This document shows, in pieces, positions 2,365 through 7,648 of a DNA stretch of 7,648 nucleotides. The first letter of the stretch is position 1. Every line of letters starts with the position of its first letter. The position numbers and the translations under genes are program-made. Source of the stretch: a virus (lineage: Duplodnaviria > Heunggongvirae > Uroviricota > Caudoviricetes). Location: IMG/VR virus record IMGVR_UViG_2693429623_000007; one strand, written 5' to 3'. Under the pieces are notes generated by a model, which worked only from the letters and a program-made list of their open reading frames with translations, was not told where the DNA came from and did not search any database.

Positions 2365-3070
2365 ATGGCCAATACTGTAAAAATATCCAGTTGTGAGTTA
2401 ATCAACGCTGATTGCCTGGAATTTATCCAGACCTTACCGGAAAATTCTGTCGATCTGATAGTCACAGACCCGCCATACTTTAAAGTGAAGCCCGAGGGCT
2501 GGGATAACCAGTGGGAGGGCGACGATGATTACCTGAAATGGCTGGACCAGTGTCTGGCGCAGTTCTGGCGGGTGCTGAAACCTGCCGGAAGTCTTTACCT
2601 GTTCTGTGGTCATCGCCTGGCATCTGATATCGAAATCATGATGCGTGAACGCTTCAGTGTGCTGAACCATATTATCTGGGCGAAGCCGTCCGGACGCTGG
2701 AACGGATGCAACAAGGAAAGCCTGCGGGCGTATTTCCCCGCCACAGAGCGCATTCTGTTCGCGGAACATTATCAGGGGCCGTATCGTCCGAAAGATGCCG
2801 GGTATGCGGCGAAGGGCAGTGCACTGAAACAGCATGTGATGGCCCCGCTGATTTCTTACTTTCGTGATGCGCGAGCTGCCCTGGGGATAACGGCAAAACA
2901 GATTGCAGATGCCACAGGAAAGAAAAACATGGTGTCGCACTGGTTCAGTGCCGGTCAGTGGCAGTTGCCGAATGAAAGCGATTATCTGAAATTACAGGCG
3001 CTGTTTGCCCGGGTGGCAGAAGAGAAGCATCGGCGTGGTGAACTGGAAAAGCTCCACCACCAGCTGGTGG
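2365..3070 (+). CDS. DNA N6-adenine methyltransferase, beta class, N-terminal 235 codons (3' end interrupted by N gap)
   Basis: MANTVKISSCELINADCLEFIQTLPENSVDLIVTDPPYF...; catalytic motif IV DPPY at 2467-2478. Track ORF 2365-3102 runs through the gap. The gene continues in the segment 3694-4037. Confidence 0.8.
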
Positions 3071-3081
3071 NNNNNNNNNNN
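3071..3081. other. Assembly gap (11 N)
   Basis: Run of n inside the methyltransferase reading frame. Confidence 1.
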
Positions 3082-3150
3082 TGGCACAGGGGCGCGAGCT
3101 AAAACAGCACGTCATGGCCCCGCTGATTTCTTACTTTCGTGATGCGCGTA
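3082..3150 (+). pseudogene. Isolated 69-bp internal fragment of a divergent methyltransferase allele, between two N runs
   Basis: Matches 2811-2878 with several substitutions in the first 30 bp; the segment ...catggccccgctgatttcttactttcgtgatgcgcg is shared. Confidence 0.6.
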
Positions 3151-3179
3151 NNNNNNNNNNNNNNNNNNNNNNNNNNNNN
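3151..3179. other. Assembly gap (29 N)
   Basis: Run of n. Confidence 1.
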
Positions 3180-4037
3180 GCGCAGTTCTGGCGGGTGCTG
3201 AAACCTGCCGGAAGTCTTTACCTGTTCTGTGGTCATCGCCTGGCATCTGATATCGAAATCATGATGCGTGAACGCTTCAGTGTGCTGAACCATATTATCT
3301 GGGCGAAGCCGTCCGGACGCTGGAACGGATGCAACAAGGAAAGCCTGCGGGCGTATTTCCCCGCCACAGAGCGCATTCTGTTCGCGGAACATTATCAGGG
3401 GCCGTATCGTCCGAAAGATGCCGGGTATGCGGCGAAGGGCAGTGCACTGAAACAGCATGTGATGGCCCCGCTGATTTCTTACTTTCGTGATGCGCGAGCT
3501 GCCCTGGGGATAACGGCAAAACAGATTGCAGATGCCACAGGAAAGAAAAACATGGTGTCGCACTGGTTCAGTGCCGGTCAGTGGCAGTTGCCGAATGAAA
3601 GCGATTATCTGAAATTACAGGCGCTGTTTGCCCGGGTGGCAGAAGAGAAGCATCGGCGTGGTGAACTGGAAAAGCTCCACCACCAGCTGGTGGATACGTA
3701 TACCTCACTGAACCGGCAGTATGCGGAGCTGCTGAGTGAATATAAACATCTGCGGCGGTATTTTGGCGTGACGGTGCAGGTGCCGTATACCGATGTGTGG
3801 ACGCATAAACCGGTGCAGTTCTATCCCGGGAAACATCCGTGCGAAAAACCGGCAGAAATGCTGCAGCAGATAATCAACGCGAGCAGTCGTCCGGGAGACC
3901 TGGTTGCAGATTTTTTTATGGGTTCAGGTTCAACGGTAAAAGCGGCGATGGCACTGGGGCGTTGTGCGATTGGTGTTGAGCTGGAGACCGGACGTTTTGA
4001 ACAGACAGTCAGGGAAGTTCAGGATTTAATCGTTTGA
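3180..4037 (+). CDS. DNA N6-adenine methyltransferase, beta class, codon approx. 65 to stop (5' truncated by N gap)
   Basis: 3180-3693 appears identical to 2557-3070 (514 bp). The C-terminal part carries the AdoMet-binding motif I, FFMGSGST. Motif IV before motif I is the beta-class order. Stop TGA 4035-4037. Reconstructed full gene is about 349 aa. Confidence 0.8.
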   Translation, partial: AQFWRVLKPAGSLYLFCGHRLASDIEIMMRERFSVLNHIIWAKPSGRWNGCNKESLRAYFPATERILFAEHYQGPYRPKDAGYAAKGSALKQHVMAPLISYFRDARAALGITAKQIADATGKKNMVSHWFSAGQWQLPNESDYLKLQALFARVAEEKHRRGELEKLHHQLVDTYTSLNRQYAELLSEYKHLRRYFGVTVQVPYTDVWTHKPVQFYPGKHPCEKPAEMLQQIINASSRPGDLVADFFMGSGSTVKAAMALGRCAIGVELETGRFEQTVREVQDLIV

Positions 4038-4098: not shown

Positions 4099-4395
4099 CT
4101 GCGGCGGTATTTTGGCGTGACGGTGCAGGTGCCGTATACCGATGTGTGGACGCATAAACCGGTGCAGTTCTATCCCGGGAAACATCCGTGCGAAAAACCG
4201 GCAGAAATGCTGCAGCAGATAATCAGCGCTAGCAGTCGTCCGGGTGACCTGATTGCAGATTTTTTCATGGGGTTGGGTTCGACAGTGAAAGCGGCACTGG
4301 CGCTCGGGCGTCGTGCAATTGGCGTTGAGCTGGAGACTGAACGTTTTGAGCAGACGGTTCGGGAAGTACAGGATTTAGTCAGCCAGAACGGATGA
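4099..4395 (+). CDS. Methyltransferase C-terminal fragment, second allele (5' truncated at the junction n at 4098)
   Basis: In-frame from 4099. Product ...VTVQVPYTDVWTHKPVQFYPGKHPCEKPAEMLQQIISASSRPGDLIADFFMGLGSTVKAALALGRRAIGVELETERFEQTVREVQDLVSQNG* differs from the 3751-4037 allele by scattered substitutions and a 5-aa longer tail. Confidence 0.7.
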   Translation: MRRYFGVTVQVPYTDVWTHKPVQFYPGKHPCEKPAEMLQQIISASSRPGDLIADFFMGLGSTVKAALALGRRAIGVELETERFEQTVREVQDLVSQNG

Positions 4396-4435: not shown

Positions 4436-4511
4436 GGCCCTTTAGCTCAGTGGTGAGAGCGAGCGACTCATAATCGCCAGGTCGCTGGTTCAAATCCAGC
4501 AAGGGCCACCA
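4436..4511 (+). tRNA. tRNA-Ile2/Met, anticodon CAU (ileX/ileZ-like)
   Basis: Hand-folded cloverleaf: acceptor GGCCCTT/AAGGGCC, D arm GCTC-AGTGGTGA-GAGC, anticodon loop CTCATAA, T arm GCTGG-TTCAAAT-CCAGC, discriminator A, encoded CCA. Resembles E. coli ileX as recalled. Confidence 0.85.
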
Positions 4512-4518
4512 TCACATA

Positions 4519-4595
4519 CCGCCATTAACTCATCAGGATAGAGCGCCAGCCTTCGAAGCTGGTTGCGCGGGGTTCGAGTCCTCGATGGCGGTCCA
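4519..4595 (+). tRNA. tRNA-Arg, anticodon UCG
   Basis: Acceptor CCGCCAT/ATGGCGG (7 bp), anticodon stem CCAGC/GCTGG with loop CTTCGAA, T loop TTCGAGT, encoded CCA. The D stem has one A-C mismatch. Confidence 0.75.
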
Positions 4596-4608
4596 TTATC
4601 TGCATCAT

Positions 4609-4685
4609 GCGTTGTTAGCTCAGCCGGACAGAGCAATTGCCTTCTAAGCAATCGGTCACTGGTTCGAATCCAGTACAACGCGCCA
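4609..4685 (+). tRNA. tRNA-Arg, anticodon UCU
   Basis: Acceptor GCGTTGT/ACAACGC, D arm GCTC-AGCCGGACA-GAGC, anticodon stem ATTGC/GCAAT with loop CTTCTAA, T arm ACTGG-TTCGAAT-CCAGT, encoded CCA. Confidence 0.85.
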
Positions 4686-6181: not shown

Positions 6182-6559
6182 ATGCCGGGTAAATTCAGAT
6201 TCAGCCGTCGCAGTGAAAAAAATCTGGAGGGTGTCAAACCACAGCTGGTTGCTGTAGTTCGCCGTGCGCTGGAGCTGACGGAGGTTGATTTCGGTATTAC
6301 GGAAGGCCTGCGCAGTAAGTATCGCCAGAAACAGCTGGTTGCGGAAGGGAAAAGCCAGACCATGAACAGCCGCCACCTGACCGGTGATGCGGTGGATGTT
6401 GTGGCCTACATTGGCAGTCAGGTGTCATGGGAGTGGCCTCTGTACGAGAAAATCGCACAGGCATTTAAGCAGGCTGCCGCAGAGCTGGGGATCGCTATCG
6501 AATGGGGCGGGGACTGGAAAACGCTGAAAGACGGACCTCACTTTCAGCTGAAGCGATAA
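6182..6559 (+). CDS. Endolysin, peptidase M15 family (L-alanyl-D-glutamate peptidase / VanY-like)
   Basis: ATG 6182 after gaggtg (the track uses GTG 6176). Putative zinc ligands in SRHLTGDAVD (H-x6-D) and DGPHFQL, as in T5-type endolysins (recalled). Directly follows two membrane-protein genes. Confidence 0.8.
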   Translation: MPGKFRFSRRSEKNLEGVKPQLVAVVRRALELTEVDFGITEGLRSKYRQKQLVAEGKSQTMNSRHLTGDAVDVVAYIGSQVSWEWPLYEKIAQAFKQAAAELGIAIEWGGDWKTLKDGPHFQLKR

Positions 6560-6566
6560 GTAAAAC

Positions 6567-6599
6567 AAAACCCCGGCTGGGGGAACAGTCCGGGGTTTT
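6567..6599 (+). terminator. Rho-independent terminator after the endolysin (3' side abuts N gap)
   Basis: aaaaccccgg ... ccggggtttt, a GC-rich stem with a 13-nt loop and four T's before the N run. Confidence 0.5.
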
Positions 6600-6823
6600 N
6601 NNNNNNNNNNNNNNNNNNNNNNNNNNNNNNNNNNNNNNNNNNNNNNNNNNNNNNNNNNNNNNNNNNNNNNNNNNNNNNNNNNNNNNNNNNNNNNNNNNNN
6701 NNNNNNNNNNNNNNNNNNNNNNNNNNNNNNNNNNNNNNNNNNNNNNNNNNNNNNNNNNNNNNNNNNNNNNNNNNNNNNNNNNNNNNNNNNNNNNNNNNNN
6801 NNNNNNNNNNNNNNNNNNNNNNN
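6600..6823. other. Assembly gap (224 N)
   Basis: Run of n between the endolysin terminator and the lipoprotein gene. Confidence 1.
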
Positions 6824-6857
6824 GCTGTTCTGATTTGGGCTGTGCGTTGGTGGTGAT

Positions 6858-7040
6858 ATGGCGCGAAAACACTGGACACACAGAATGCCGCGAACGGCGG
6901 TGAAACGGGCACTGGTAGCGATACTGGTGCCTTTTTTATTGGTGGGGTGCGTCAGCCTGGATAAGGCGCGCCAGCTTTTCGATACCGCGTCTCAGGTCTG
7001 TGAAATTGTCGACGGTGTTCGGCAGTGTCTGCAGAACTGA
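6858..7040 (+). CDS. Small lipoprotein (60-aa precursor); possible o-spanin (Rz1-like) or other outer-membrane lipoprotein
   Basis: ATG 6858 after ggtggtga. Basic N-region MARKHWTHRMPRTAVKR, hydrophobic core ALVAILVPFLL, lipobox LVGC. Mature part of about 37 aa with two further Cys. Not proline-rich as lambda Rz1 is, so the spanin assignment is weak. Confidence 0.45.
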   Translation: MARKHWTHRMPRTAVKRALVAILVPFLLVGCVSLDKARQLFDTASQVCEIVDGVRQCLQN

Positions 7041-7214
7041 TCGCCTGTAAGAGCAGAATATTTTGCTGAAAAATGAAGGATGCGCCAGCGTCCGGTAAGC
7101 ATGAAATTCTGTGTTTGTGGCTACTCAATAAAATAAATTCTTTCTGTCGCCGCGAATACTCAAATGTTGATCAGTGCCCGGTGCGGCGACGGGCTTCGAT
7201 ATCAGGAGACGATG

Positions 7215-7608
7215 ATGGAAAAAAACAGAAAACAAACCGATTGTAATTGGTGCTGATGCTGCTCCGTTTAAGTTTGAGTTGTCTCAACTGGTGGAGATGC
7301 GTATCAGTGATGAATGGGGTGAGGTTAAAGCCCGCGCGCAGTATGCGGATGGCGAAAACCAGTACTTGATCCACTACAAAGCAGCTGATGGTCGCGCCAC
7401 GACGGAGTGGTTTGGTGAGTCAATGCTGGAAGCAACAGAAGATGATCGTCATCCGGGTTGTCCGGTATTTGCCGGTATGAAATTACCGGAAGGTGCAGTT
7501 GAACTGCAGCCGGGTGAGGTGTTCGTAATGACAGACATCATTGATGGTAAACCGCAGTATTCGCGTATTGAAATGAATAGTAAGAGTGCTCGCCTGATTC
7601 GTGAGTAA
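7215..7608 (+). CDS. Hypothetical protein, apparently frameshifted at an A7 tract (7219-7225); uninterrupted frame runs 7279/7297-7608
   Basis: ATGATG at 7212-7217 with SD aggag at 7204-7208 opens a frame that stops after 14 codons. The long frame (W K K T E N K P I V I G ... ARLIRE*, stop 7606-7608) has no ATG until 7297 and no SD for the TTG at 7279 or the ATG at 7297. Removing one A from the tract fuses the SD-preceded start to the long frame, giving about 131 aa. Confidence 0.5.
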
Positions 7609-7648
7609 CAGGCATTACAGCAGCCCTTCACTCTAAGGGGTTGCTGTA

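Follow-up and report, generated by a model that had tools for sequence, protein, structure and literature searches.

The last gene of the 7,648 nt stretch of prophage DNA analysed here (the window) is very probably a real one-base frameshift allele of a prophage accessory gene, a case of ordinary decay at a mild mutational hotspot. The lesion is a seventh A in a run which has six A's in intact copies. The preliminary description of the window had proposed that a frameshift in a homopolymer disconnects the gene from its start codon and had left three causes to choose from, a sequencing error, a pseudogenising mutation or a slippage site. The frameshift reading is right, and among the three causes the real mutation is supported.

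The run of seven A's is read directly at positions 7219-7225 of the plus strand, on which the parts of this gene are located. It is preceded by a Shine-Dalgarno sequence, AGGAG (7204-7208), likewise read directly, and by two tandem start codons, ATG ATG (7212-7217). The second ATG at 7215, 6 nt behind the Shine-Dalgarno sequence, is the RefSeq start in alleles with six A's. Compared with these alleles the run is longer by one A, a frameshifting insertion. It is part of an A-rich 5' coding stretch, GAAAAAAACAGAAAACAAACCG (7218-7239), with the direct repeats AAAACAG/AAAACAA at 7222-7235. Translation from the tandem ATGs yields 14 codons, MMEKNRKQTDCNWC, and ends at TGA 7254-7256, i.e., an aborted frame from 7212 to 7256. 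The gene body is in the +1 frame, which extends uninterrupted from 7216 to TAA 7606-7608 and offers TTG 7279, GTG 7291 and ATG 7297 (region 7279-7299) as its earliest conventional starts. A properly spaced ribosome-binding site is absent at all three; ATG 7297 is preceded only by GGTGGAG, which directly abuts it with zero spacer. Farther upstream, the ATT codon at 7240-7242 is the RefSeq/PGAP start of a 122-aa CDS in genomes with seven A's (WP_032303084.1); inspection of the sequence found no ribosome-binding site ahead of it either. The preliminary description was accurate in its statements on the sequence: the Shine-Dalgarno-preceded frame stops after 14 codons, and the long frame to 7608 has its first ATG at 7297 and lacks a ribosome-binding site. 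It was equally correct that removal of one A joins the two frames. In silico, the joined frame codes for 131 aa when read from 7212 and for 130 aa when read from 7215.

The stop codon of the aborted frame overlaps an ATG (TGATG, 7254-7258). Re-initiation at this overlap was considered and rejected, since its ATG sits in the third frame; the 37-codon ORF which it opens (within 7254-7369) is probably due to chance. By itself, the A7 run is unremarkable. The window contains five A7/T7 runs where 2.4 are expected, and 32 of 200 shuffled sequences reach five; the remaining four runs leave their ORFs intact. The run acquires its meaning from the comparison with homologues.

The 130-aa frame-corrected product is identical to WP_000415817.1 of E. 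coli ETEC H10407. The H10407 locus has six A's, and over 549 nt this single gap is the sole difference from the window. The RefSeq CDS of H10407 (3116-3508 of locus L001) has 130 aa and begins at the second ATG, which corresponds to window position 7215. The intact allele reads ATG GAA AAA ACA GAA AAC (MEKTENKP...), and from ACA 7225-7227 onward all codons of the window (residues 4-130) specify the H10407 protein. Thus, the window has the H10407 frame from residue 4 to the end, cut off from its start codon. Close homologues of the E. coli type begin with MEKTENKP or MEKKEDKP; distant ones have different and shorter N-termini.

This small accessory gene resides in a lambdoid E. coli prophage and belongs to family phrog_1935, which is annotated as of unknown function. 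The family HMM matched the frame-corrected product with an E-value of 2.5e-69 and aligned over its full length from residue 1 onward (residues 1-115 on profile positions 1-116 of 116). Pfam and NCBIfam returned zero matches for the protein or for 50 family members, and sequence searches of the PDB returned only non-significant matches, BH3703 (E 0.3) and the PEX13 SH3 domain (E 0.6). The window represents the late region of the prophage. When complete E. coli genomes were searched with the entire window, it was not recovered as such; the best match reached 89% coverage at 96% identity. A Q-like antiterminator is followed by a DNA methyltransferase, three tRNAs, a TerB-like gene and DUF3927, two holins, an M15 endolysin, spanins and then the phrog_1935 gene; in related loci the gene for the small terminase is located about 0.6 kb farther downstream. 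L33 of phage phiP27 has the same position as the window gene, between lysis genes and terminase, and differs from it by an interrupted tract (GAAACAACA) and a shorter C-terminus. A 60-aa homologue in Yersinia prophages is likewise positioned between lysis genes and terminase, and a Stenotrophomonas homologue is found amid other phage genes. The C-terminal ends are interchangeable within the family (window 7501-7608 and homologues), with forms of 98, 115 and 130/131 aa; similarity to phiP27 L33 and to E. coli SE11 ends near window position 7500.

Some features of the surroundings should be recorded. The three tRNAs (4436-4685, anticodons CAT, TCG and TCT) were the only hits of an Rfam scan, and RefSeq labels a tRNA at the corresponding position of related prophages as tRNA-Ile. 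The TCT tRNA reads AGA, which is the codon at 7227-7229 of the aborted frame. Positions 6858-7040 hold an ORF for an o-spanin-like lipoprotein, whose signal sequence reads ...LLVGC. The single terminator-like hairpin (6907-6932) lies inside the region coding for the signal peptide of this lipoprotein and is probably a chance match. A promoter scan of 6800-7648 found none.

What do homologues look like at the tract? In IMG/VR we tallied 87 loci which share a 26-nt tag downstream of the tract, and 84 of them have the start motif GGAG-N-N-GAT-R-ATG. The frame is kept in 79 of these 84 copies: 58 have the plain A6 sequence, three have A6 and a G-to-A change further downstream, 13 have an interrupted run (GAAACAACA), four have an A7 that was generated by a G-to-A substitution, and one reads GAAAGAACA. 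Five copies are out of frame: three with A7 by insertion, one with A5, and one (L021, IMGVR_UViG_2778261227_000017) with a deletion of seven bases between the adjacent repeats AAAACAG/AAAACAA, equivalent to window 7222-7235. Translation from the ATG could be evaluated for 80 copies, of which 74 gave a complete protein (98, 115, 130 or 131 aa) and six were disrupted. In five of these six the break lies inside the 22-nt A-rich stretch; the sixth has a premature stop further downstream. Because the breaks concentrate in this manner, we consider the stretch a mild indel hotspot, in all likelihood one of replication slippage. A further protein, P0036, apparently is without the G at 7239, judged from the protein sequence. 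Where the flanks are exactly conserved in complete E. coli genomes, the run is A6 in 65 cases, A7 in six and A5 in four. Intact homologues thus have six A's and use the ATG that follows the Shine-Dalgarno sequence, as expected when a frameshift has split the gene from its start. Homologues which start at the internal ATG or TTG, which the preliminary description had named, together with reads confirming seven A's, as adverse to a frameshift, were not encountered.

From these comparisons the following course of events can be proposed. In the intact allele translation would begin at ATG 7215 behind AGGAG and proceed to 130 aa. An extra A then joined the run of six, most likely via strand slippage in DNA replication. 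Ribosomes which initiate at the sole well-placed start would halt after 14 codons and leave the gene body stranded in the +1 frame. The protein would be lost; at most a trickle of N-terminally truncated product may be formed by re-initiation at TTG 7279, GTG 7291 or ATG 7297. Most likely, the A7 allele retains little or no function (null or strong hypomorph). No second lesion was seen in the gene body, which is why the mutation probably is recent in each lineage. An intact gene body would fit a continued use of the gene equally well.

The consequences of a late start depend on the architecture of the protein. A profile search yielded 682 representatives at E-values up to 0.001, many of which are stand-alone proteins of about 60 aa that start just before the FKFEL motif. 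Therefore, residues 18-75 are viewed as the core and the first 17 residues as a variable leader. The core, from F18 to about E75, is encoded by 7267-7440. F18 and F20 are invariant in the close family; in the wider alignment F18 is invariant and F20 is present in at least 90%. A structure prediction based on 108 diverse sequences (an earlier input of 38 close homologues was unusable, pLDDT 49) suggests that the core is a five-stranded SH3-like beta-barrel with strand 1 at residues 24-28. Foldseek hits in the PDB and among viral models were limited to generic barrels (SH3, Tudor and KOW) and to uncharacterised phage proteins. The predicted core resembles HspQ/YccV-type and other SH3-like small beta-barrels in fold (PDB 5ycq), yet the sequence does not match the Pfam model for HspQ/YccV-like domains.

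Given this architecture, one may ask whether the A7 allele still yields a working, shorter protein, either from ATT 7240 or by re-initiation at TTG 7279, GTG 7291 or ATG 7297. Several points speak for it. The first 17 residues are variable, distant homologues begin just before F18, and the gene body is intact. The sequence further suggests that re-initiation is conceivable, as the short ORF ends 23-41 nt ahead of the candidate starts. Nevertheless, we regard a working product of this kind as unlikely. No Shine-Dalgarno sequence precedes ATT 7240 or TTG 7279, and the GGAG ahead of ATG 7297 abuts it and leaves no spacer. With a start at TTG 7279 or beyond, the invariant F18 is lost together with F20, and ATG 7297 removes barrel strand 1 as well; according to the model, truncation from 7279 onward would damage the fold. 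ATT 7240 is the only candidate which keeps the whole core, and ATT is a very poor initiation codon.

The lesion has been found on more than one background. The A7 allele occurs in about four prophage backgrounds, characterized by a DUF1441-type or Nu1-type terminase and a DUF1133 or Antiterm-type Q, and its carriers comprise both complete and degraded head regions. In L092, L096, L097 and L099 the packaging and head modules are complete. In L093, L101 and L002 the large terminase is truncated, fused or adjacent to tail genes, i.e., head genes are deleted. Relative to the window, 21 of 491 positions are changed in the A7 copy of E. coli SE11, whose C-terminal end also diverges; in the A5 copy of L094, 19 positions are changed. 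This distribution fits recurrent slippage at the hotspot. The allele may also have spread by recombination of short segments, since all these copies share an identical stretch of 81 nt around the tract. In several respects the allele resembles homopolymer frameshift pseudogenes of decaying prophages. One base was gained in a mononucleotide run, a premature stop follows immediately, the gene is an accessory one, and some carriers are degraded (truncated terminase, terminase-tail fusion). Unlike in typical cases, the lesion recurs on several backgrounds (A5, A7, 7-bp deletion) and is also present in prophages whose packaging and head genes are apparently intact.

Recurrence raises the possibility that the run is a phase-variable (contingency) switch which toggles the prophage gene at a useful rate. 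Alleles with A5, A6 and A7 all exist, A7 and A5 are each found on more than one sequence background, about 13% of the copies with identical flanks are out of frame, and SE11 has one copy shifted in each direction. Still, we consider such a switch highly improbable. Contingency tracts usually are longer than A7, and the tract is short by this standard. It is interrupted with the frame kept in 13 of 84 copies, so the run is dispensable. Further, the complete-genome carriers of A7 mostly share one prophage layout, which fits inheritance better than switching, and the overall pattern is that expected for ordinary decay at a mild mutational hotspot. A related proposal, that the recurrence of A5, A6 and A7 on different backgrounds at about 13% 'off' results not from plain decay but from selection for an SH3-like accessory protein which can be silenced reversibly, perhaps with some low-level rescue by slippage, deserves hardly more credence.

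The third cause which the preliminary description had named, a slippage site, would imply that A7 is a recoding site and that the gene is still expressed, perhaps in a regulated manner. Restoration of the protein requires a +1 shift or the loss of one A from the mRNA, i.e., a +1 ribosomal shift on A AAA AAA C or slippage of RNA polymerase. In fact, a +1 shift of the Lys-tRNA from AAA to the overlapping AAA would reproduce the A6 protein exactly, the body of the gene is undamaged, and A-runs are established slippage sites (PMC1088944, PMC5009743). A -1 shift on A_AAA_AAC was rejected because it enters the wrong frame and meets a stop at 7244-7246. Programmed ribosomal frameshifting should be reflected in a conserved layout. 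However, 79 of 84 copies are in frame, 13 of them with the interrupted run (GAAACAACA) and four with an A7 that stems from a G-to-A change, and the out-of-frame layout is not conserved. A stimulator of a +1 shift is not evident either. During the shift the A site would hold AAC, which is not a stop codon and is not rare, and the search for an internal Shine-Dalgarno sequence found only that of initiation, 11 nt upstream of the run.

Transcriptional slippage fares no better. In reporter assays with E. coli RNA polymerase slippage was undetectable on fewer than eight A's, and none of the poly(A) runs tested allowed a rescue by deletion (PMC6260861); the seven A's of the window fall short of this length. 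Selection against such runs becomes visible from about nine bases in many bacterial genomes (PMC1088944). The closest parallel are the 9A/9T cases in which slippage at A/T runs rescues an out-of-frame gene (Baranov et al., 2005, PMC1088944). Common to both is an A-run which joins the two frames of an out-of-frame gene. In contrast to those cases, the run of the window is only 7 A's long, homologues do not share the layout, and rescue would depend on a deletion, precisely what was absent for E. coli RNA polymerase in reporters (PMC6260861). With an unconserved layout, a run too short for detectable slippage and an A-site codon, AAC, that offers no pause, programmed recoding at A7 is not supported, and a slippage site as the cause is a remote prospect.

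Lastly, the seventh A might be a sequencing or assembly error of this record, the true genome having A6 and an intact gene. Homopolymers are a classic source of base-calling errors, and four of the six complete genomes with A7 derive from one CM1286xx assembly series. The state of the record also gives reason for caution, because N runs and repeated methyltransferase segments suggest that it is gapped or scaffolded. The window contains 333 N's in total (at 1182, 2113-2179, 3071-3081, 3151-3179, 4098 and 6600-6823), and segments of the DNA methyltransferase are repeated and flank several N runs (ORFs 2365-3102, 3114-4037 and 4117-4395), an arrangement suggestive of scaffolding or masking of the record, or of a prophage repeat that was collapsed. 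The run of 224 N's covers most of an i-spanin-like ORF (6502-6903).

Yet the allele is reproduced in independent sequence data, namely six complete genomes, three IMG/VR loci and nine contigs. The finished genome of E. coli SE11 is one of the six. SE11 (NC_011415.1) has two prophage copies of the gene, at 2146928-2147008 (L004) and 1765931-1766009. One contains A7 and the other A5, so that their frames are shifted in opposite directions, and no CDS is annotated across the tract in either copy. In a public collection of contigs, the exact intact 130-aa protein was present on at least 993 contigs, the 103-aa protein from ATG 7297 on 123 and the 122-aa protein of RefSeq on 36. The latter two are products expected only from a broken 5' end. 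Ten contigs with the 103-aa call, originating from different sequencing runs, one metagenome assembly and NCBI drafts, were checked; nine had A7 and one A5. Five of the checked loci match the window at 100% identity over 825 nt and a sixth over 646 nt, across independent runs and projects. Against these assemblies zero gaps were found over a further 2164 nt, so that the window has no other indel over about 3 kb in total. The CM1285xx/CM1286xx accession series also gives A6 copies, and the four other A7/T7 runs of the window, as stated, do not disturb their ORFs. The difference of A7 versus A6 alone explains the broken frame. A sequencing error is thus very unlikely, since A7 is present in SE11 and in independent assemblies and other indels are absent; as a general explanation it is effectively excluded. 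The identical A7 in SE11, in five other complete genomes, in IMG/VR prophages and in many short-read assemblies argues for a real mutation.

The significance of a real frameshift allele primarily concerns annotation. RefSeq/PGAP presents the A7 allele as a normal 122-aa protein from ATT (L002 3141-3509, corresponding to window 7240-7608) and sets no frameshift flag; other gene callers report a 103-aa protein from ATG 7297. Both calls conceal a frameshifted copy of a 130-aa gene. The value of the present analysis is to correct this; we claim no novel biology, nor does it open a new biological question. Beyond the correction, a small indel hotspot, the 22-nt A-rich stretch, has now been located in a prophage gene of wide distribution. 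Further, the family obtains its first structural description, a core predicted to be an SH3-like barrel which is combined with a variable N-terminal leader and varying C-terminal modules.
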